Source: a virus. Taken from it: DNA of 64,000 nt. A program made the position numbers and the translations under genes. Location of the stretch: the IMG/VR virus record IMGVR_UViG_3300036820_000011, positions 18,853 through 82,852 of that record. One strand, 5' to 3'. The notes below the pieces were generated by a model. That model made no database searches and was not told where the DNA came from. It saw only the letters and a program-made list of their open reading frames with translations. Shown here in pieces: positions 8,634-52,878 of the stretch (positions within the stretch are counted from its first letter, which is position 1; every line of letters begins with the position of its first letter).

Positions 8634-11600
8634 TCAGACCCCCGGGATCAGGCCACGGAGGCGGCCGTGCTGCTTGGCGTCCTGGAGCGCGGAGATCAGC
8701 CAGTTCTGCAGCTCGTGCCTGCTGCCGACCGGTCCGTGGAAGTGGGCGTGCACGTGCAGTTCCCCGCCGCCCGCCGACTGCCCGGGGCCGAGCACCCGCT
8801 CCGGCCGCCCGGTGCCGTTGTTGGCGATCGAGCGGCCGACGGGGAGGTAGCCGCCGGAGTCGTACCAGTTGTTGCTGTTCCCGGTCAGCATCGGCTGACG
8901 GTCCTGGCGCATGGTCCACGAGCCGAGTTCCGTGGTTGCGCACCACACGGACTCGGTCCCCGCGTCCCCGGTCCGGATGCTCTCACCGCCCAGGAACGGC
9001 TTCGCCTCCCGGATGGCCACACCGGTCCGAGGAGTTGTGCAGCCCAGATTGCTCCGGCCGCTGCGCTTCCACTCGGTCATGGCAGGGCGCTTCCCGCTGA
9101 GGTAGACCGCCAGGACGATGGCGTCCTGCTGCGCACCGTCCGCCTGCGAGTAGCTCTTCCCCCCGGAGTAGTGGCCCTTCCCCAGAATCGGCCCTTCCTG
9201 GATCTTCGTCACGCCTTCCGCCCCGAACACCCCGCGTAGGAAGGCTTCCCGCTGCGGCTCGGACAGCGATAGGACGAAGGGGACCGGATCGGCATGGTCG
9301 TACCCACTGCGCCTGAGCAGTTCCGCCGACCACGGCCGGTGAAACTCCCAGGTGGTCAACGGGAGTCCCGGCTCCCCACTGGGCTTTGTCATCGGGCGCA
9401 CGGTACGGGTGAACGGGAGTCCGGACACCAGCGACTCGATCGCCTTCACGTGTTCCGGCTTGGACTGACCGAGCCGAATGGACGGCCGGGACCCGCGAAG
9501 GGTCCGCCAGTGCGTGCTGTTCGGCGTACGACTCTTGGGCTTGATCACCCAGCCGTCGCCCAGGACCCATCCCAGCAGCTCGGCTTCCTGCAAACTGACC
9601 GAGGCGTTTTCACCGACATCCGACGGTGCGGCGAGTCGAAGGGTGTGCCGAGTGGTGATCTTCTGTGCTTCCACGAAGACGTCATCAGTCCGGAATTCGT
9701 TCTTGGTGCGTCCGCCAACACCCTTCCGGCCGACGTGCTTGCGGTGGACCGCCACCCATCGGTGGTGCGGAGTGCACACCGCGTGCCATGTCTTGTTGGT
9801 GAGTCGGACCACTGGGACGTCATCATACCGGTGAATGTCCGTGACCCGGGTCCACTCATTGCGTTCGGTCCCGGGGTTGTACCCGACCGTCATGTCTCCG
9901 ATCTGGACGTTCTCGTAGGTCAGCCATCCGCGCTGTGTCAGAATCTCTACACTCAACGGTACGCACATCTCGTGGGACCAGGCAGCACCCGGAGAGCCGT
10001 ACCTCCCGGCGATGTAGCCCAGGCCCCAGCGGATCTGGGTCTGGTAGTTGCTGTGCCAGTCGGGTCCGGCGGATGCCATCTTGTCGGCCGGAAGCGCCTG
10101 AGGAATCCCGTAGGCCCCACTGGATGCATTGAGTGCGTTCCAGCGCCAACCGCTTTCCTGGTTCCACAGCTTGATCAGCGGGCCCATCTGGTTGCTGCTC
10201 CAGTAGTACCGGCCGAGCAGGCTCTGGGCGTAGTTCTGCGCCGCGCCTGCCGCGACGCCGGAGAAGCCGCCGTTGTTGTTAAGTCCGGAGTTGGCCGATG
10301 CGGCTGCGGTGACCGCCGCGTAGATGCTGGCCGCGTTGCTCTGGGAGAACGCCTGCGTCCACGCGGCGATATCCCGGGTCACCGTGTTCGAGGTCGGCTC
10401 GGTCACGTGGACGCCGACCGCGCCGCCGACGGAGAACTTGCCGATCCTCCCGGCCTTCACCATCTGGCGCAGGGTCAGCATGGCCTGCTGACCGCCGAGC
10501 GCGTTGACCTCGTCCGCCGTCCAGACGTGCTCGCCCTTCGAGAGCCAGGTTAGGTTCGAGTCGGAGGTGGCCGTGCCGATCCCGCCGACAGGCCCGCCGA
10601 ACGCCAGGCCGGGCAACCCTTTCTTGTTGCCCGCCGTCGCCGCGTTGTTGAAATCGACGGAGAGGTTGACTGTCTTGTTCTGGATTCCGCCCAGCGAGGC
10701 GTTGACCGATGCCCGGAAGTTGTCGAACGCCTTCTCGGCGGACTTGAGCTTGCCGCCGACTCCGGGCACCCAGCCGAGCATGTCGGACGCACCGTGGAGT
10801 ACGTCGCCGACCATGGTCATGAAGCCGTTGACGATGAACCGCAGCGCAGGCTCGATGCCGTTGGTCCACAGCCACATGAACGCTGATTCGATCGGGTGGA
10901 TCACGTCGTTGAACAGGAAGTTGTATGCCCCCAGGGCAGCGCTCTGAATGACGTGCCATGCGCTGACAAAGAAATTGACGAACGGCCCGGCAAACCAGTT
11001 ACCGATATTCAGGAAGAAATTGACGAACGGCCCGGTGAACCACCGTCCAATACTCAGGAAGAACCCGACAAAGGGACCGGTGAACCAGTTACCAATACTC
11101 AGAAAGAAATTGACAAAAGGTCCCGTGAACCATCTTCCGATATTCAGAAAGAAATTGACAAAAGGTCCTGTGAACCAACGACCGATGTCCAGGAAGAACC
11201 CGACGAAGGGACCGGTGAACCAGTTCCCGATACTCAGGAAGAATCCGACGAAGGGTCCCGTGAACCATCTTCCGATATCGATGAAGAAGTTCACGAAAGG
11301 ACCGCTGAACCAGCGGCCGATATCCAGGAAGAAGTTGACGAACGGCCCCGCGAACCAGTTGCCGATGTCAATGAAGAAGTTGACGAAGGGCCCGGCGAAC
11401 CATTCGCCGATGCTCTCCATGATTGACCTGAACAACTGGCTGTGGGTCCACGCATACGCGAATCCTGCCGCCAGGGCGGTAAGCCCGAGCACCACCAACA
11501 TGATCGGGTTGGCGTCCATGACAAGATCCAGCGCGCCTTGGGCGATCGTCTGCAACTTGGTCGCCACTGTAACGATCCCGCACCACAGATTGTAGATCTT

Positions 11601-27300: not shown

Positions 27301-27553
27301 CAGCGATGATCCCCGCTCGCAGGTCGGCGGAGTAGATCGATGCGTTCGGGCCCAGGTAGTAGAGCGTGCAGTGCAGTTCGGCTGCCGCCTCGCCTCCCTT
27401 GACCGCCAGCCGCTTGGCATCGGCAGGCGTTGGCATCAGCGCGATCATGCAGCCGGTGTGGGCGACGGCACTGGCGTCACCGTTCGCCAGCGCGGTCCGG
27501 CGGCCGTGGGCGGACTGCACGTGGTGGCCGCGCTGGTGGAAGTCCTCAGGCAT
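24332..27553 (-). CDS. 2H-phosphoesterase + MuF-like + capsid maturation protease fusion
   Basis: LHCTL..LG and AHICAAY; D.RTC..C...DG...C.GG.NCRG; EG..SGDGR.F...L.WR.LP.PL, GVSID, AATLC.IPAF, SGDWR. Confidence 0.85.
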   Translation of the reverse strand: MPEDFHQRGHHVQSAHGRRTALANGDASAVAHTGCMIALMPTPADAKRLAVKGGEAAAELHCTLYYLGPNASIYSADLRAGIIAAATDMLGGLAPVQANIFGIGHWNGTGSSPSWIWNIGDDPAVDCPDLEHIHGTVDAVLDAVLGSDPDDVNAPDQHTPWAAHICAAYTDDLTLAPTLEKALGPVTFDRVRVSFGSEDTDIPLSGSSGVTAAAKVKPPKHPGEFRRLPNATEQAAKVDFAQHQRSWDTAVSGALHDWKGITADWRNQIYNQISLGGADDLGSLSVDTSAAAEVLYQRMTIVAQAAGKAQQREAEQQGVTVGDWSLTASLKGLDLLRSVSQLTSRTLGTRLVQSAVQRAMSLLGTFSGIRLASEIEQFLQSLTDAFEKQWLGNAMSSAQNAGRIAVLEAAPAATYYATELMDDRTCSNCTAIDGKAFSSLDDAESAYPGGGYIDCLGGGNCRGTIYAVWDQGMLASAEEETTVTTVTEEELGGKPSTGTAKDKRLKANKPNGSTAPGSEMSEINGAPCADCPDDAAHFASGPSVSDAPWDGAASRFSDQQYKTASAACDPGDEPPKTACFLPHHEPDGELSRAGLGAAAGRFSGLKGHSPAAVAAAKSHLVAHYHAIGEPVPDNLSATGHSHLFVPEPAAPAPVAMPEGGQTAPWEGVLAPEGKTSGDGREFAPDALTWRDLPIPLRWNRVDSHGGEPRTEAVNVGRIDSINRDGGLIKASGVFDLSTPDGQTAYSKVQNQMLRGVSIDADSIKDADVEMIYPQVDGEDPDADPFLALFAPPDKVIYHGGRISAATLCDIPAFAEAYIQLTDPDTGSVVAGGAMDPAEWEAAQPEPEALVAYAAPVMDYAPPAEWFENPGLNLWTDITVTADGRVYGHAAAKGSCHIGYANQCVTMPVEDQHAYYLTGEILCDDDTTVAVGQITIATGHASPNAGAQAAVDHYDHTGAVVADVTCGNDSVGIWVAGAIRPDADPAKVAALRASGRVSGDWRRIGGKLRLVGLLGVNVGGFAAPSPRVRVASGVLQSLVAAGSPPPRTVELSEEDLDQQAMQRVMAMLVRKVKR

Positions 27554-29840
27554 GGCTGGTGCCGTTCACCCGGGGCACCGACGGCTGGAGCACGGTGGAG
27601 ACCATGTGCGTGGTGTCCAGGTAGGGGTTCATGCCGTCGATCCGCAGCAGTCCGAAGGCGTCCAGGTGGCAGACGTACGTGCCCGGCGCGCCGGGCCGGG
27701 CCACAGGCGCGTCGGTGACCACCGCGTGGGTGAACGGGCAGCTGTAGGCGTACTCGGTGCACACCGCCGGGTGCTTGAGGTCCCAGCGGCCGTCAGTCCG
27801 GAAGACCAGCGCGTGCTGGGTGCTGGACTGCTGGGCGCGCAGTTCGGCCGACGCCGTCTTGGACGGCGGCGTACCTCCGGACGGTGGCGGACTGCTGCCT
27901 GCCTGCGGCGGGCCGCCCGGAGGCGCGCCCGCGACCGGCGGCCCCTCGTCCACGGGCTCCGGCTGACCGGGCTCGGGAACGGGCCCGGCGATCTCGGACA
28001 CCGCACCGGGGCCCGCCGTGGCGGGCACCATCAGGTCTTCGCCGATCAGCAGGTCGAACGCTGCCGGGGTCGCCCCGTGGGTGAGCCGGATCATGGACTT
28101 CAGACCCATGTTCTTCAGATCCTCGGTCGTCGGCGCGTCGTCCTCATCGAACCCGGCCTCGCGCCGGTACGCCTTCGGGGACAACTCCATCCGGTCGAAC
28201 GCCTCCATGGCGTTCTGCGACCGGTCGGGGCGCAGGGTCAGCTCCGACATGTCGTACCAGGTCACGATGTCCGTGGCGTCCACGCCGGGCGTGGCCGTCA
28301 GTCGGGGGGTGAGGTAGCCCTTGGTCAGTGAGTCGCAGATGATCTCAGCATAGGGGGCAATATGGACTTTGAGACCACTCTCCTCAACTGCCCATGCGCT
28401 GTTCCCGGTGTAGAAGACGTGGCCGTTGTCCTCAGCCAGCCAGGTGCCGTTCCCCGTGGTGGGGCACCAGACCGTTCCGGTGTACGGCTCACTGGAAATG
28501 ACCGCTGCTGCCAGGTCTCCGTCATCCGCGTTCCACGTCAGCAGATGACGATCAGAAATGTCGTATGCATCACGGAGATCTGCGCTCGTCATCCACGTAC
28601 GCGCACCACTCCGGGTAACCACCGGCCAACGGTGCGCCTCAGTGGACAGGGATTCGTGACCCGGGGTCTTGATCCGCACCATGGTCTCGGCGGTGACATC
28701 CCAGGTGTTGATCGCCTCAAGCGGCTGCCACTCGGACAGTCCGGTGGCGTGGTTGAGCGTCAGTACTGCATCCCCGACCGCGAGATCCTTCCGGTACGCC
28801 CAGCCGGTCTGGGTCCAGATACGGACATGATCCGGCACGCACCAGTGATTCGCATCAGCAAGCCCCAGCATCACGTCCGAGGGAATGTCCAGCTTGGTGG
28901 CCAGACGCCGGATCACCTGGTCCCGCTTCTCCAGGATCTGGTCATCGATCTTGAGTGTGAAATCGATCAGCTTGATGTCGCCGATGAACTCGGCGGGCAC
29001 CCGCAGCGGGATCGGCACGACCGAGGACGCGGTGCCCGGCTTCTTGATCGCGGTGGCAGCGATCTCGATCCACTCGGACATGAACGGGTCCTCCTGGTCC
29101 GCGAACTCCTCGCGCACCGGGAACGTGATCTCGTCCGGGAGGATCAGCACTCCGGCGGAGGCCAGCCGGGACAGGTACTGGGCGGTGATGTGCCGGTTGA
29201 CCAGCTCCAGCTCCTGCATGATCGTCAGTGCGGAGCGGGCCGGGCTGTCGGCCAGGTGGTAGAACCGGGCGTGCGGCTGCCAGACCCGGATCACGGCGGA
29301 ATCGGGGGCCAGGTTGCGCCACTTGTTGCCCAGCAGCGGGTTGTACTCCTCGGTGACCTGGTACTGGCCGCCCATGGCGCGGACCTCGTCCACGGCCCGG
29401 ACCATCCAGTTCTCGGTGCCGTCCGGCTGTGTCTCGCCGATCAGGTAGCACTCGCCCGGGACGGCCAGGTGGACCGTGAGCCGACGCATGATCTCGGACT
29501 TGCCGCCGATCCCCTTGCCCAGTTTCTGGATCAGCTCAGCAGGGAGACCGGTGTCCAGCACGGTGGGCTCGTCGTTGTCCGGTGCGAGCTGCCCGGCGCG
29601 GAGCCGGACCCGGCTCATCATGTTCGCCAGCCAGGTCACGGCGTAGTTGAACTCGCCCAGGGTGTCGTAGTAGCCCCAGCACTCGTTCTGCCAGCGGTCG
29701 GTGTGCCGCAGGTACTGCGCGAGCGGTGCCTCGGCCGGAACGGCGGCGGCCGTGAGCGACCTGGCCCGGAAGGCGGCAGGTACCGCTGGTCCGGCCGGGG
29801 CGGGCAGCGTGCGGTTGAACTTGAAGTTGTACCAAGCCAC
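27546..29840 (-). CDS. portal protein, intein-containing
   Basis: WQ.E.W.YYD.LGE, HL.VPGE.YL, ADSP.RS.L..L.EL, SRLASAGVL, RLA..LD.P...LG...NHW|SAW. Confidence 0.9.
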   Translation of the reverse strand: MAWYNFKFNRTLPAPAGPAVPAAFRARSLTAAAVPAEAPLAQYLRHTDRWQNECWGYYDTLGEFNYAVTWLANMMSRVRLRAGQLAPDNDEPTVLDTGLPAELIQKLGKGIGGKSEIMRRLTVHLAVPGECYLIGETQPDGTENWMVRAVDEVRAMGGQYQVTEEYNPLLGNKWRNLAPDSAVIRVWQPHARFYHLADSPARSALTIMQELELVNRHITAQYLSRLASAGVLILPDEITFPVREEFADQEDPFMSEWIEIAATAIKKPGTASSVVPIPLRVPAEFIGDIKLIDFTLKIDDQILEKRDQVIRRLATKLDIPSDVMLGLADANHWCVPDHVRIWTQTGWAYRKDLAVGDAVLTLNHATGLSEWQPLEAINTWDVTAETMVRIKTPGHESLSTEAHRWPVVTRSGARTWMTSADLRDAYDISDRHLLTWNADDGDLAAAVISSEPYTGTVWCPTTGNGTWLAEDNGHVFYTGNSAWAVEESGLKVHIAPYAEIICDSLTKGYLTPRLTATPGVDATDIVTWYDMSELTLRPDRSQNAMEAFDRMELSPKAYRREAGFDEDDAPTTEDLKNMGLKSMIRLTHGATPAAFDLLIGEDLMVPATAGPGAVSEIAGPVPEPGQPEPVDEGPPVAGAPPGGPPQAGSSPPPSGGTPPSKTASAELRAQQSSTQHALVFRTDGRWDLKHPAVCTEYAYSCPFTHAVVTDAPVARPGAPGTYVCHLDAFGLLRIDGMNPYLDTTHMVSTVLQPSVPRVNGTSHA
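28401..28841 (-). mobile_element. mini-intein (147 aa) in portal
   Basis: NHW/CVPDHVRIWTQTGW...STEAHRW...VWCPTTGNGTW...FYTGN/SAW. Confidence 0.88.
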
Positions 29841-29913
29841 GGTGTACGCCTCCCTGCCTGTCGGCTGGGAGCAGCGTACCGTCTGGCAGCCCGGCAGCAT
29901 CCCGGGAAGGCCG

Positions 29914-33079: not shown

Positions 33080-34936
33080 TCAGAGTATGACACTGCGCAG
33101 GTTCACTTCACCGATCTGCCGCGAGGCCGCCTCACCGCCGCCGAGACGGCCCATGCCCGCCGACGTGGTGTGCGCCAGTTTCAGTGCCCATGCTGCCCAG
33201 ACACTGTTGTGCACCAGAATCCCGTTGGCGAAGAACTCCGGCACTTCCTCCACCGTCAGGTCATAGACCGGCTGCCTTGTTCCGAGCGCGCAGATACGCT
33301 CCACAGGAGCTGGAGCAAGTAGCGGGTACCGGTCTGAAGGTGATGCCGTTGGAGACAACTGACTCAATTCCGGGTGCCATGCCCCCGGGCTGTCGCCCCA
33401 GACTATTGCGTCCAGTCTTACGAACCCCTTTCCGAGCACCCATACCCGGTGGTTGGCCGTCCCGGTGAGAGACCCGCCCGGGGTGTCCACCCGGAGGACT
33501 TCAGCGCTGGGCGACGTCATCCAGGAGCGCAGGACGCACCGCCATCCCTGCCGTGTCATCACCTGGTCGTCCGTGGTCACCGCTTCGATCGGGACTTGCC
33601 CTCGGCGAGTGGTGACCAGAGTCCCCGCTACCAGGCAGGCGTCCACACGGTCCGGGCTCCAGTTGAGTTCCGGATGCCAAGTGACCATCTGGTCCTCCAG
33701 CGCCTCGAAGGTGCCCGCGTGGTGCCAGCGGCCCTGGGCCGTCATCGCGCTGACCGGCTGCGCCCGGATCACCTTGCCCCGGGACGCGGTGACCTTGCGC
33801 ACCGGGATGCTGACGCCCAGCGCCTCGGCTGCGGATCTCAGTGTTGACACGCACATATCACCTCCGAAGTTCACCTCGCAGACCACCTCGTGCGCCTGCC
33901 AGTCGACAGCAGCCTGGATAGCCCGCTTGCCCCAGCCGTCCGGAGACAGGTGGCAGGTGCGATCGTCCAGGACGTAGCCCTGGTGCTGCGGGCGGGTCGA
34001 CACCGGCAGGTCGATGTCCGGGTCCACCGGCATGGCAGAGGACGGGAGCAGCAGTTTCGACCGACCGGCGACCACGATGCCCTGCTCGCCCGCACCGCCG
34101 GACGGGTCGACACCGACCACGATCCGGCTGAGGTCCGGCAGACCGGCAGCAGGCACCCGGGCCGCGTCGATCGTGGCCATCTTCCACAGGGCGTTGACGT
34201 CCTCGCCGATCAGCTGGCCCATGAGTTCCTGGCGGCCGAGCTGGGTCCCGCCGTAGGCGTCCTCCAGTGCCTCGCGGACCTCCAGCGGCAGGTGCGGGTT
34301 GTCGTAGGTGGACGCCCGGGTGACGACCGTGTTCGGGATCTCGCCGCGTTCCAGCCGCTTGATCAGCGGACGGGACTTCGGAGTGGTCGACGCCACCCAG
34401 TGCGGATGCGGTCCCGTACGCAACCCGAATCGCATGTGGTCCCAGCAGTCATCCAAATACCTCCAGGCTGCTAGCTCCTCAAGCCAATTCAAGCATCGAT
34501 TTCCGCCACTCCTTAGTCGTTCTACATCTTCCGGGTTATTCGTACCGAACAGCTTCGCCTCACTGCCGTTGGGCCACAGGATCGACAGCCCGCCGGGGCG
34601 CTGCACCATCCGGGCGTCGGGGGAGTGCACCCGGATGCCGGACGGCCCGGAGAAGCAGGACGTGGCCGCGTCACCGAGGGTCGGTGCGATGATCCCGATC
34701 CAGTGCGGGACAGGGCCGGGCAGGCAGGGCGGTCCCTTGACGTGCTGGGAGATGTAGTTGGCGCATACATCAGTTTTTCCAGCCCCCCGGCCTGCAAGGG
34801 TTACCCAGCCAGCGAAGCCGGGCGGTGGCGGGACCTGGTGCGGCAGCGGTGTCCAGCGCGGCGACGACAGCTGGCTGATCTGCTGCGCCAGCTTGTCCGC
34901 TGCCTTGGCCGCTACCTCCTGCGGACCGCCCGCCAT
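33080..34936 (-). CDS. terL: terminase large subunit, intein-containing
   Basis: Walker A AGRGAGKT, WLEELAAW, STTPK, STYDNPHL, VGVDP, EVNFGG, SPDRVDA|SVWA. Confidence 0.93.
   Translation of the reverse strand: MAGGPQEVAAKAADKLAQQISQLSSPRWTPLPHQVPPPPGFAGWVTLAGRGAGKTDVCANYISQHVKGPPCLPGPVPHWIGIIAPTLGDAATSCFSGPSGIRVHSPDARMVQRPGGLSILWPNGSEAKLFGTNNPEDVERLRSGGNRCLNWLEELAAWRYLDDCWDHMRFGLRTGPHPHWVASTTPKSRPLIKRLERGEIPNTVVTRASTYDNPHLPLEVREALEDAYGGTQLGRQELMGQLIGEDVNALWKMATIDAARVPAAGLPDLSRIVVGVDPSGGAGEQGIVVAGRSKLLLPSSAMPVDPDIDLPVSTRPQHQGYVLDDRTCHLSPDGWGKRAIQAAVDWQAHEVVCEVNFGGDMCVSTLRSAAEALGVSIPVRKVTASRGKVIRAQPVSAMTAQGRWHHAGTFEALEDQMVTWHPELNWSPDRVDACLVAGTLVTTRRGQVPIEAVTTDDQVMTRQGWRCVLRSWMTSPSAEVLRVDTPGGSLTGTANHRVWVLGKGFVRLDAIVWGDSPGAWHPELSQLSPTASPSDRYPLLAPAPVERICALGTRQPVYDLTVEEVPEFFANGILVHNSVWAAWALKLAHTTSAGMGRLGGGEAASRQIGEVNLRSVIL
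33206..33637 (-). mobile_element. mini-intein (144 aa) in terminase nuclease domain
   Basis: RVDA/CLVAGTLVTTRRG...GTANHRV...VYDLTVE..PEFFANGILVHN/S. Confidence 0.9.
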
Positions 34937-34938
34937 GG

Positions 34939-35994
34939 CTAGGCAGCCGCCCAGACCCGGGCGTAGTCCACCAGCATGGTCGTCGGCGTGACGTGCGGTC
35001 CGCCGTAGGTGCCCGAGGTGTTGTTCAAGATCATAAACATCGGGGCGTCGGTGATGCCCTGGGACACATTGCCGACCTTGACGCCGTCGTACCAGTAGTC
35101 GACGTTGCCCTCGGTCCAGTGGGCCGCGAACGTGTGCCAGCCGCTGCCGGTGTTCGAGCAGTTGCCGCTGGCACCGTTGTCCTGCGGGGACTGGAAGTGA
35201 CAGCCGGTACCGCCGGACAGCCCCTCCATGACGTCCATCTCGCCAGTGGCTGGCCAGGCTCCGAGCCCGTCACACCAGGCCGCAGGCCAGTTGTAGACCG
35301 TCTCACCGCTGCCGGGCAGGAACACCCGGAATTCGACCACGCCGTAGGTGAAGGAGAACTGCTTGGACGACTCGACCAGCGCGCCGTACGCGGAGGTGAG
35401 AACCAGGTTCAGGCTGCCGCCGGACACCGAGACGTTCTTGGAGTCGTAGCCCTGGTCCTCCGCACCGTTGACGGGCCCGGTGAACTCGTTGCTCGACAGC
35501 CAGCCGTTGTTCCACTTGGTGGTGTCCAGCGCGGTGCCGTCGAACTCGTCACTGAAGACCAGGTCCCAGATGCCCGGGATGCCGGTCGGCACCGGGTTGT
35601 CCGGCACCGGCGGAGTAGGCGTCGGCGGCACTGGTACGGGCGGCACCGGCGGCACAGGCGGCGTGACGGACGCCGGAGTGACCACCAGGGTCCCGGACGG
35701 CTGCGGATGCCAGGTGCCGTTGATCTCGTACGAGCCGAAGATCTCATAGACCCCGGTCGGGAGCGACCGCATCCCGGACAGGTAGGTGGTCCCGGCCGGA
35801 ATGATTGTAGCGGCGACCGCACCCGGGAAATCGAAGTTGTTCCCCAGGGCGTCCCGCACCGCGACTGTGACCCGGTCGGCGTGCAGGGAGGCCGTGGCCG
35901 ACAGCCGCAGCATGGCCTGGGCCTGGACTCCGGCGGTCATGGCGGCGGGGCCGACGCTGTCCTGGGTGACGATGACAGGCGTGCTGCGTGACAT
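34939..35994 (-). CDS. glycoside hydrolase family 16 with N-terminal Ig-like domain and Pro-rich linker
   Basis: WDLVFSDEFDG, WPAAW, catalytic GEMDVMEG, WHTF...W, MLVDYARVW. Confidence 0.85.
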   Translation of the reverse strand: MSRSTPVIVTQDSVGPAAMTAGVQAQAMLRLSATASLHADRVTVAVRDALGNNFDFPGAVAATIIPAGTTYLSGMRSLPTGVYEIFGSYEINGTWHPQPSGTLVVTPASVTPPVPPVPPVPVPPTPTPPVPDNPVPTGIPGIWDLVFSDEFDGTALDTTKWNNGWLSSNEFTGPVNGAEDQGYDSKNVSVSGGSLNLVLTSAYGALVESSKQFSFTYGVVEFRVFLPGSGETVYNWPAAWCDGLGAWPATGEMDVMEGLSGGTGCHFQSPQDNGASGNCSNTGSGWHTFAAHWTEGNVDYWYDGVKVGNVSQGITDAPMFMILNNTSGTYGGPHVTPTTMLVDYARVWAAA

Positions 35995-45308: not shown

Positions 45309-46387
45309 GCTTCCGCCTTGGGTGCGATGTACTCGAACGACCTGGTCCCCAGCCGCCGGGCGGCCGTCTGGGGCCGGTTCATGGGGGTCCTAAGTCGGTC
45401 GGACCCAGGCGTGGTGTCCCGCCACCTGGGCGACGCCTGGTAGTAGTGGATCAGCGCAGGATGGGACGTGACCGCCCGGAACCGGTATTCCTGATCCCAG
45501 AGGTACTGGCCCAGCCAGTCATTCATCCGGCCGCCGATGCCCAGGCCCTGGTAATCGGGCAGCACGACCAGCCGGTGATTCATCTTGATGTTGCGGGTGT
45601 GAGCATGCGGGAAGTGCCGGTAGGAGTCGAAGGCCACCAGATCGTCTCCGATGAACCCGCCGAAGCAGACCGCCGCCGTGGCCAGATCACCGCTCAAATA
45701 ATGATGATCTTTAAAGAGGGGCCAGACGGAACGATCGACCTGGTGGACGCGGAGGTCCAGTGCTGGCCGGGCTGGAACCGACCCCCAGGTGAGCGTATCC
45801 GTGGCGACCTCGTAGACCCAGTCCGGCTGCAGCCACTCGGCGATGTCGTAGTGGCAGGTCACAGCGACAAACCGGCGTCCACTGCGCCGTACGGACTTCT
45901 GGACGGTGTGCGAGGCGACCTTGGCGACCTGGCGGTCCACGACCGAGGTGAACTCGTCCACCACGGTCAGGCCCGGCGACTCGGCCAGGGAGCGGGCGAT
46001 GTCCGCCCGAAACTGCTCGCCGTTGGACAGGGTCCGGTACGGGCGGAGCCACACCGGCACCGAGCCGAGACCGACCGCCCCGAGCAGGCCCGTGATTTCC
46101 TTGATGCCCATCCCGGCCGGGAAGTCGTCCACCAGGGAGCGATCGGGGGACCAGCGGTGACCGTGGCTGTAGGCGTCCGGCCACAGGGCCCTAGCGACGG
46201 ACGACTTGCCGGAGCCGGACGGGCCGACCACCATGCCGACCGACCAGTCCTTCTCCTCGACCGGGAGGTGGACGTCCCAGGAGTTGGACGCCTTCTCCTC
46301 GACGGAGACATCCATCAGGGAGCTGATCTGCGCCAGCCGCGAGGTCGCCTGGACCGGTGTGCTGACCTCGACCCTCAGCTCAGGCAC
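45305..46387 (-). CDS. ABC-type ATPase fused to GNAT acyltransferase
   Basis: GPSGSGKS, LSNGEQFR, VVDEF, TCH; HHYL and RLVVLPDYQGLGIG. Confidence 0.85.
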   Translation of the reverse strand: MPELRVEVSTPVQATSRLAQISSLMDVSVEEKASNSWDVHLPVEEKDWSVGMVVGPSGSGKSSVARALWPDAYSHGHRWSPDRSLVDDFPAGMGIKEITGLLGAVGLGSVPVWLRPYRTLSNGEQFRADIARSLAESPGLTVVDEFTSVVDRQVAKVASHTVQKSVRRSGRRFVAVTCHYDIAEWLQPDWVYEVATDTLTWGSVPARPALDLRVHQVDRSVWPLFKDHHYLSGDLATAAVCFGGFIGDDLVAFDSYRHFPHAHTRNIKMNHRLVVLPDYQGLGIGGRMNDWLGQYLWDQEYRFRAVTSHPALIHYYQASPRWRDTTPGSDRLRTPMNRPQTAARRLGTRSFEYIAPKAEA

Positions 46388-52093: not shown

Positions 52094-52660
52094 CTACGCG
52101 GAGCGGGAGGCGTCGTCTGCGGTGTGCGGCGCGATCAGTGCGTCCAGTTCAGGGATGGAGACGAATACTTGATCAAGACCGTTCACGTACCTGGTCAGTT
52201 GTTTCGTACGGAGCCAGGTATTGATGCGGCACAGGGGCACTCCTGCACGCCGCGCGGCAGCAGTTCTGCGCAGGAACGGTCGCTCCGGCGGCACGTAAAC
52301 CGCTTCGGGTTCACGTACCTGACGGCGTGATCGGTACGGGATGGACCGCTGGGTGTTGACCTGCGGAGTGACAGGATCGCCGTGCCAGGGGTTCCAGCAG
52401 GCATGGACCCGGCACAGGTGGTCTATATCCAGTTCCTGTGGGAGGTCTCCACGGAGCAGGTGCCATGAAACCCGGTGCGCAGAATACACATGGCCCCAAC
52501 CAGTGCTGCACGCAGAGTAATTGGTGCGCTTCGTGTTTTTCGGTACCCAGCAGTACGGGTGCAACCCCCTGACCAGGCAGGGGACCTCGATGGACCGCAC
52601 AGTCAGGCGTTCGATCATCTGGAACGCGGTGTCGGGGATCGGACGGCCAAGGCGGCTCAC
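52094..52660 (-). CDS. HNH endonuclease with C-terminal HTH
   Basis: CW, AHRVSW, IDHLCR...C.NP.H...VT...N. Confidence 0.85.
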   Translation of the reverse strand: MSRLGRPIPDTAFQMIERLTVRSIEVPCLVRGLHPYCWVPKNTKRTNYSACSTGWGHVYSAHRVSWHLLRGDLPQELDIDHLCRVHACWNPWHGDPVTPQVNTQRSIPYRSRRQVREPEAVYVPPERPFLRRTAAARRAGVPLCRINTWLRTKQLTRYVNGLDQVFVSIPELDALIAPHTADDASRSA

Positions 52661-52878
52661 GGCGTGACGCTCTTCTCTTCGTCGGTCACCGGAATGTCCC
52701 GGCCGGTGATCCGGTCCAGCTCCAGTGTCTGGATCACGACCCGTGCACGTCGTGATCCGCGTCGGGTGTGCTTGGTCAATGTGCCGTCCGCCAGCCATCG
52801 GGCCACCGTGCGGATGTGCACCCCGGCACGTTCGGCCGCCTGCTTCTGGGTGAGGTATTGCGGGGTGTCAGGAGTCAT
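52657..52878 (-). CDS. excisionase/MerR-like HTH DNA-binding protein
   Basis: YLTQKQAAERAGVHIRTVARWLADG.L. Confidence 0.8.
   Translation of the reverse strand: MTPDTPQYLTQKQAAERAGVHIRTVARWLADGTLTKHTRRGSRRARVVIQTLELDRITGRDIPVTDEEKSVTP

Follow-up and report, generated by a model that had tools for sequence, protein, structure and literature searches.

Phage homing endonucleases are known to act on the sequence around their targets. With SegF and SegG of T4 and the intron-borne HNH enzymes of SPO1 and SP82, a cut in a related genome starts a short conversion that is centred on the site (PMC2988022). Amongst actinobacteriophages the large terminase subunit (TerL) is the main host of inteins, which occupy its P-loop and Walker B motifs (PMC5050341), and endonuclease genes have been described in another reading frame inside actinophage inteins, where mutation of the endonuclease target site as a means of resistance is raised only as a possibility to explore (bioRxiv 10.1101/2025.01.02.630785). 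In the Torulaspora WHO/FBA1 system one third of the synonymous single changes gave resistance (bioRxiv 10.64898/2026.08.13.744650), and the homing intron of plant mitochondrial cox1 is flanked by short exonic co-conversion tracts (PMC3192709). Here we describe the TerL gene of a soil phage, studied in a window of 64,000 nucleotides (bases 18853-82852 of the 82,852-base IMG/VR contig IMGVR_UViG_3300036820_000011), in which two islands of A/T-ending codons straddle junctions that are occupied by inteins in relatives.

The locus resembles the T4 and SPO1/SP82 systems in having reshaped sequence around insertion sites in conserved genes, with HNH-type enzymes in some cases. Those systems were, however, studied in crosses, where the tract comes from the endonuclease-carrying phage, whereas the present islands lie in intein-less alleles, are known from sequence alone and do not match the flanks of intein-bearing alleles. 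As in the arms race of WHO and FBA1, a short target, here a putative one, within a conserved gene diversifies, there under selection to evade cleavage. That system is eukaryotic and experimentally tested, with LAGLIDADG enzymes, a 28-bp target and replacement of half of the gene, whereas the present case concerns a phage and inteins with a nested HNH gene, and its signal, a dip in GC3 (G or C at third codon positions) over islands of 48-96 nucleotides, is a sequence-only one. The cox1 tracts are similarly short, non-native flanking tracts left as footprints of homing at a conserved site. They match the donor and persist after intron loss through an RNA intermediate, a route that inteins do not have; for the islands in TerL, in contrast, no donor match was found. 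The out-of-frame endonuclease architecture of the non-canonical actinophage inteins reported in 2025 is also seen in relatives of this TerL, at the sites called B and D below. The available text of those actinophage papers (PMC5050341; bioRxiv 10.1101/2025.01.02.630785) deals with the inteins, without treating codon usage at empty sites. In the literature covered, with subscription journals and supplements outside it, we found described neither islands of depressed GC3 at empty intein sites nor homing-endonuclease-resistant alleles in phage populations. Theory predicts alleles resistant to homing endonucleases.

The contig has a GC content of 68 % and a CheckV completeness of 91 %; its relatives are Streptomyces-type, and relatives of its TerL occur in Streptomyces genomes. 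Using a codon-usage model self-trained on the sequence, 118 genes were called in the contig and 83 in the window, where 2147 of the 19358 codons (11.1 %) end in A or T (the share of such codons is referred to as AT3). TerL (33080..34936, minus strand; 618 residues including a resident intein) is recognised by Pfam Terminase_6N (E-value 1.3e-13) and Terminase_6C (E-value 3.9e-9). Its AT3 is 19 % overall and 11 % in the extein when three patches are excluded. Patch A (34766..34813, minus strand; codons 42-57, AGWVTLAGRGAGKTDV), with 10 of 16 codons A/T-ending, covers the Walker A motif together with an empty intein site, G51|A52, whose junction falls at nucleotides 34783/34784. Patch B (34451..34546, minus strand; codons 131-162, GTNNPEDVERLRSGGNRCLNWLEELAAWRYLD), with 18 of 32, covers a second empty site, R147|C148 (junction at 34495/34496), immediately downstream of which E153-E154 is the probable acidic pair of Walker B. 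Patch 3 (33830..33865, minus strand; codons 358-369, GGDMCVSTLRSA; 7 of 12) lies in the nuclease domain. A preliminary description of this stretch, made from the DNA letters, had quoted rare codons at 34765-34812 and 34450-34545, and these are present as quoted, on the minus strand and in frame with TerL.

The intein sites were defined from a protein search with TerL, which gave 2750 relatives; amongst the best 120, 17 that were much longer than the rest were examined for inteins. Site B (RSGGNR|C, R147|C148 in the window) carried inteins in 10 of these 17, and also in L016-L024 and L031, there being 10 loci with available DNA that carry inteins at this site. Two of the 17 (P0064 and P0111) had inteins at site A, GRG|(S)GKT inside Walker A (G51|A52), one a few residues downstream of site B, two at site C (EDQM|C, M417|V418) and four at site D (D.DA|C, A433|C434), which is the site of the window's own intein. 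When these sites were mapped onto the patches, as the preliminary description had proposed, patches A and B were each found to straddle a junction of the relatives' inteins, homologues having an intein at exactly the same position. At the +1 residue of site B, C148 is present and invariant in alignment A1; at site A the serine of intein-bearing alleles is replaced by A52 in the window.

A wider census using phmmer covered 268 relatives (119 from the best 120 and 149 further ones) and, with approximate domain boundaries, found 35 insertions of at least 100 residues in 31 of them. Seventeen fell in the bin of residues 145-149, five in 150-154, three in 50-54, three in 410-414 and seven elsewhere, so that R147|C148, with 22 of the 35 large insertions in bins 145-154, is the main intein site of the TerL family; the count for site D is too low, owing to its short C-extein. 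The same relatives qualify the statement of the preliminary description that amino-acid motifs remain intact. It is roughly true, but the residue pair V45 and T46 in patch A is absent from all 268.

Several of these inteins are predicted to encode an endonuclease. In the site-B inteins with DNA, GC3 of the central part is highest in the +2 frame, where open frames of 179-238 residues are found. The +2-frame open reading frames (ORFs) of L016 (2130-2714), L018 (1917-2630) and L024 (2133-2720) match Pfam HNH_3 with E-values of 3e-13 to 6e-15, and the in-frame intein reading across the nested ORF is of low complexity; L017 contains a similar nested open frame. The closest relative with DNA, L185 (74 % amino-acid identity), has a 325-residue intein at site D with a nested +2-frame HNH_3 ORF as well (2249-2917; E-value 6e-13). 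Judged from its length of about 160 residues, the site-A intein of P0064 is too short for a nested ORF of this 180-240-residue type.

Islands of this kind recur in other TerL alleles. From IMG/VR, 95 alleles with DNA were collected, of which 76 were non-redundant (below 95 % amino-acid identity), and 67 of these had an AT3 below 0.25. A likelihood-ratio scan with a score threshold of at least 7 detected 17 low-GC3 segments in these 67 high-GC alleles; 12 overlap window residues 126-171, and 11 lie at most three codons from the junction at site B, a count that averaged 0.88 and never exceeded 6 when segments were placed at random 20000 times. One further segment, in L170 (residues 50-57), is at site A. 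Over the site-B region the patchy alleles are 61-79 % identical to one another at the nucleotide level, with the exception of L122 and L123. Distance from the putative target was measured against the bases seen in intein-bearing flanks, taking seven codons on each side of the site-B junction (42 nucleotides); 40 empty alleles had 0-2 mismatches and 22 had 4-7, and the window, with 7 of 42, shares the highest count found in 68 empty alleles.

Clustering of rare codons is a known phenomenon, and the smoothed AT3 excess of the whole family has a single internal peak near residue 142 (+0.11, z 2.8), being weak at site A (z 1.1) and absent at sites C and D. It may thus be asked whether rare-codon clusters are selected at the ATPase motifs, where they would slow translation or open mRNA structure. 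A conserved translational pause is, however, at odds with the distribution of the patches, which occur in only about one fifth of the alleles (some 12 of 67 at site B), are missing from the closest relatives and vary in extent and in codons from one allele to another. No promoter, terminator or Rfam match was detected in TerL, which also sets aside these elements and known RNAs as a cause, and no k-mer was common to the patches beyond chance; a common DNA-binding motif was rejected on the same ground, no 7- to 9-mer being shared among 13 patches beyond what random segments share. Of the explanations considered, selection for rare codons appears the least probable.

Synonymous divergence is raised at the TerL patches, as the preliminary description would lead one to expect. 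Identity of the window to L185 at synonymous third positions is 0.50-0.66 over the bulk of the extein and falls to 0.41 for patch B, 0.20 for patch 3 and 0.08 for patch A. Amongst 69 pairs of alleles with 0.70-0.97 synonymous identity elsewhere in the gene, pairs that are not independent of each other, identity in the site-B region fell below that of the rest in 48 and exceeded it in 17 (mean difference -0.09). A boundary can be placed in one pair, L117 and L118 (TerL of G001 and G004), which are identical over codons 1-60, 161-200 and 341-433. Their divergence forms an island at codons 61-149 with its peak at 121-149, and the last difference is at codon 149, two past the site-B junction. The same pair has a second island of divergence at codons 241-340, over a variable linker. 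Deaminase-type hypermutation was rejected in view of the many transversions among the differences from relatives (as read informally from alignments), and a diversity-generating retroelement because targets and pattern would not fit.

The patches colocalise with intein junctions and recur in independent alleles, synonymous divergence is raised there, and a tract ends at the site; these direct observations call for a site-specific cause, and intein-borne endonucleases are the obvious one. With moderate confidence, patches A and B may be regarded as footprints of homing-endonuclease and intein traffic, left by local gene conversion or by escape at homing sites. In this TerL family inteins insert at G51|A52 and far more often at R147|C148, those at site B bringing an out-of-frame HNH endonuclease gene; on this proposal the enzyme would cut intein-less alleles at or near the site, the break would be repaired by short gene conversion from any homologue present, and versions no longer matching the target would survive. 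Within this chain we infer that cleavage occurs, how the break is repaired and that recoded sequence is resistant. With G/C-ending codons making up about 90 % of the total, a replaced or repeatedly changed stretch stands out as an A/T-ending island; for two-fold degenerate G/C-ending codons the sole synonymous alternative ends in A or T. Either of two routes may have been taken: a break may have led to the import of a short tract from some divergent homologue, or changes in the target may have been selected stepwise. The V45/T46 pair and a switch of serine codon family in the patches (AGT versus TCC) favour the former.

A broader statement, that recurrent and independently arisen recoded islands at the empty intein sites of high-GC phage terminases are the natural record of a continuing arms race between HNH enzymes borne by inteins and their targets, is offered tentatively, as something possible rather than probable. 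If it is true, a local GC3 dip at a conserved motif would serve as a detector, from sequence only, of homing-endonuclease pressure and of cleavage-resistant alleles. Should the islands be scars of resistance or repair, they would allow cheap detection of active homing sites and resistant alleles in metagenomes, supply ready pairs of sensitive and resistant targets for the nested HNH enzymes, and constitute a concrete case of selfish elements shaping the synonymous sites of an essential phage gene.

Several observations weigh against the endonuclease proposal. The flanks of intein-bearing alleles are mostly G/C-ending. In comparisons with the 76 alleles the synonymous match of patch B does not exceed 12 of 20 (0.60), and exact-pattern scans of IMG/VR and JGI metagenomes yielded no new donor, recovering only the known contigs L104 (the same as L024) and L191 (the same as L142). 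Empty alleles have no hotspot of patches at site C, nor at site D with its HNH-bearing inteins, and no insertion was found at the position of patch 3 in the 268-relative census. A scan of bacterial assemblies gave 11 TerL loci, two with site-B inteins and nine intein-less (seven of them from Streptomyces); in this small sample the nine had no strong site-B patch, the maximum being 7 of 32 codons. Usual endonuclease sites measure 14-40 bp, and the length of patches A and B counts against the proposal because 48-96 nucleotides exceeds this. For one hotspot and four sites, positional coincidence alone is estimated at roughly p 0.1, and inteins and any other site-specific process could alike favour the most conserved motif.

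The G/C-ending flanks also imply that the patches were not simply copied from the intein-bearing alleles examined, and simple co-conversion from these alleles is excluded; patch B reaches a synonymous identity of no more than 0.60 to any allele and has only short strings in common with L024, L127 and L142. A related possibility is past occupancy, in which inteins at A and B co-converted the flanks of their donors and were then precisely lost. Co-conversion of flanks is standard in homing (PMC2988022), the presence of inteins varies among close relatives, A/T-ending codons are mildly raised on either side of the resident intein (4 of 16 and 5 of 18), and adjacent insertion sites (bins 125-155) could permit intein-free recombinants. 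Apart from the G/C-ending flanks, however, this history meets the difficulty that the window and L185 share their intein (87-96 % nucleotide identity) without sharing its flanks (70-73 %), so co-conversion tracts are very short here. Moreover, a precise loss that keeps donor sequence on both sides would be hard to achieve by homologous recombination, and the foreign sequence found on both sides of the junction is hard to reconcile with occupancy followed by precise loss. We regard past occupancy as improbable.

Co-occurring strains provide a further view of the gene. A second soil study (runs X2 and X3) holds a closer relative, about 88-92 % identical in the TerL pieces that flank patch 3, with a 106-nucleotide island of the same length but diverged at 33793-33898, enclosing that patch. 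The relative has an intein-less joint, 33151 to 33637, with 53 other letters in between (33152-33205, the C-extein flank), and its assembly breaks at 34547-34576, adjoining patch B. Other contigs of these runs match both sides of patch B yet skip 34412-34544 or 34367-34633. The absence of the intein, the replaced flank and the diverged island indicate that strain-level mosaicism in TerL is ongoing. An assembly artefact was rejected, the patches being in frame; contigs of the second study match 34547-35300, and with it patch A, at 98.5 % identity, so that patch A is not the artefact of one assembly.

Such mosaicism might by itself account for the patches, if tracts were acquired by ordinary recombination from lower-GC TerL homologues with no endonuclease involved, the position at intein sites being coincidental or due to a shared preference for conserved sequence. 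Lower-GC donors exist, AT3 in the TerL family ranging from 4 % to 64 %; the amino-acid changes and the serine switch suggest import and not stepwise change; the diverged islands and contig breaks just described fit; and L122 and L123 are 91 % identical in nucleotides over the site-B region as against 74 % in the rest of the gene. What ordinary recombination leaves unexplained is the placement of 11 of 17 patches within three codons of one junction and the end of a tract at codon 149 between near-identical alleles. It also lacks a donor in the allele set and in the IMG/VR and JGI scans (when TerL was compared by blastn with 50,697 phage records, the sole match was a G/C-rich one of 37-60 nucleotides to Gordonia phages), and patches genome-wide have no preference for conserved sequence. 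We consider it unlikely, if less so than past occupancy.

Escape from other sequence-directed host defences, that is from CRISPR spacers or from restriction at G/C-rich palindromes, was also weighed. As read from the sequence, a Walker A consensus with G/C-ending codons throughout would be rich in G/C palindromes, and the codon of R50 is CGT or CGA in 37 of 59 empty alleles. The recoding, however, also extends to codons for K, T, D, V, L, N and Y, which give rise to no G/C palindrome, and a single change or a few usually suffice for escape from CRISPR. A hotspot at one junction is accounted for by neither defence, and such an origin is judged very improbable, somewhat more so than past occupancy.

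The intein resident in the window is a mini-intein of 144 residues (C...HN|S; 33206..33637, minus strand; codons 434-577) at site D, with an AT3 of 26 % and without an endonuclease. It is predicted to be of class 1 from C434, VHN|S578 and the alignment of relatives across the gap, while its Pfam matches to Hint_2 and Intein_splicing are below cut-off. It is absent from the alleles of G001-G003, three related contigs, and from the closer relative of runs X2 and X3. Its nucleotide identity to the full-length intein of L185 is 87-96 %, as against 71-79 % for the extein; it is a deletion derivative of an L185-type intein. Codons 523-553 (33278..33370, minus strand) form an A/T-ending stretch (17 of 31); the same A/T-ending codons are present in L185, where the nested HNH_3 ORF resides, and the stretch is what remains around the deleted endonuclease region.

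Two other elements with endonuclease-like features were seen in the window. A free-standing ORF of 234 residues (52094-52798, minus strand), not picked by the gene caller, lies upstream of the primase-polymerase gene and has a sub-threshold match to HNH_3 (21-24 bits); a relationship to the intein-nested HNH ORFs was rejected, the two being unrelated by BLASTP. The tape measure protein contains an insertion of 363 residues (8877-9965, minus strand; AWSHEM|CVPL ... LTGN|SNNWY) with a LAGLIDADG-like LLGWVLGDG inside, which is a probable second intein. Its match to Pfam LAGLIDADG_3 is weak (E-value 0.25), and its AT3 is 19 % versus 15 % in the rest of the gene.

The preliminary description had gone further, in stating that such patches recur genome-wide at conserved protein motifs. 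Its premise, that of a genome with mostly G/C-ending codons and clustered A/T-ending patches, is borne out. Defining a cluster as at least 6 of 10 codons ending in A or T, 25 clusters were observed, as compared with a mean of 14.2 (standard deviation 3.1, maximum 23) in 500 within-gene shuffles that keep the amino acids. Clustering in the 71 genes of at least 100 codons reached p<=0.05 in 20, p<=0.01 in 14 and p<=0.001 in 9. The link to conservation was examined in 19 genes (5208 codons) alignable to G001-G003, which share 40-67 % amino-acid identity with the window in common genes. A/T-ending codons made up 9.5 % at residues identical in these relatives, as against 9.9 % at the others, and the stratified odds ratio (Mantel-Haenszel) for conserved against other residues was 0.87. 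Patches scoring at least 7 were no more conserved than the rest of their own genes, and several are located in unaligned insertions, termini or inteins. The genome-wide part of the claim fails by the refuting condition set out in the preliminary description itself, as no enrichment at conserved residues is found. The earlier list is attributed to recognition bias: it is mostly ordinary codon heterogeneity, noticed since the motifs are recognisable. It serves as a caution that codon-usage anomalies at recognisable motifs are easily over-read, a pattern that dissolves at genome scale. What endures of the proposed scars of nuclease escape or local recombination concerns TerL, with its intein-site colocalisation, HNH ORFs, recurrence and divergence, and not the rest of the genome nor an intein link for the GNAT patch discussed below.

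Of ten sites flagged in that list, four are strong or moderate and six are weak, as estimated pointwise from amino-acid-specific expectations in 200000 simulations. In TerL, the Walker A patch has 10 of 17 codons A/T-ending (expected 2.3; P 5e-6), the Walker B-region patch 18 of 33 (expected 3.7), a count reached in none of the 200000 simulations, and the NFGGDMC motif 6 of 13 (P 1e-3); the GNAT motif FKDHHYL has 6 of 8 (P 5e-6). The remaining six are the catalytic Cys of the peptidase (6 of 23, P 0.023), PolA motif B (5 of 11, P 0.008), helicase motif I (3 of 6, P 0.029) and motifs V-VI (4 of 17, P 0.011), the neck-protein HPGT motif (4 of 15, P 0.038) and the glycosyltransferase motif (7 of 25, P 0.008). 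Their P values of 0.008-0.04 are not significant, because they are pointwise values amongst about 19000 codons.

The GNAT patch (45686..45715, minus strand; 8 of 10 codons A/T-ending) encodes FKDHHYLSGD in an ATPase-GNAT protein, residues that are conserved among close homologues of the protein. No link to inteins was found, and an intein site was rejected from the lengths of the homologues, the best 120 all having 343-406 residues and none being of intein-bearing length. The strongest low-GC3 segment of the contig (11046-11183, minus strand; 24 of 46 codons) lies in the tape measure protein, where it is a threefold tandem repeat of GRWFTGPFVNFFL(N/S)IG, and its score is inflated because of this repetition. 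A 47-codon segment with 21 A/T-ending codons was seen at codons 424-470 of a 784-residue virion protein (27546-29900, minus strand); it is unaligned to the three related contigs and may be a lineage-specific insertion. Outside the window, at contig bases 974-2892, two genes are low in GC3 throughout (AT3 25-29 %), with no clustering inside them, which looks like differently composed DNA, possibly acquired, rather than patches.

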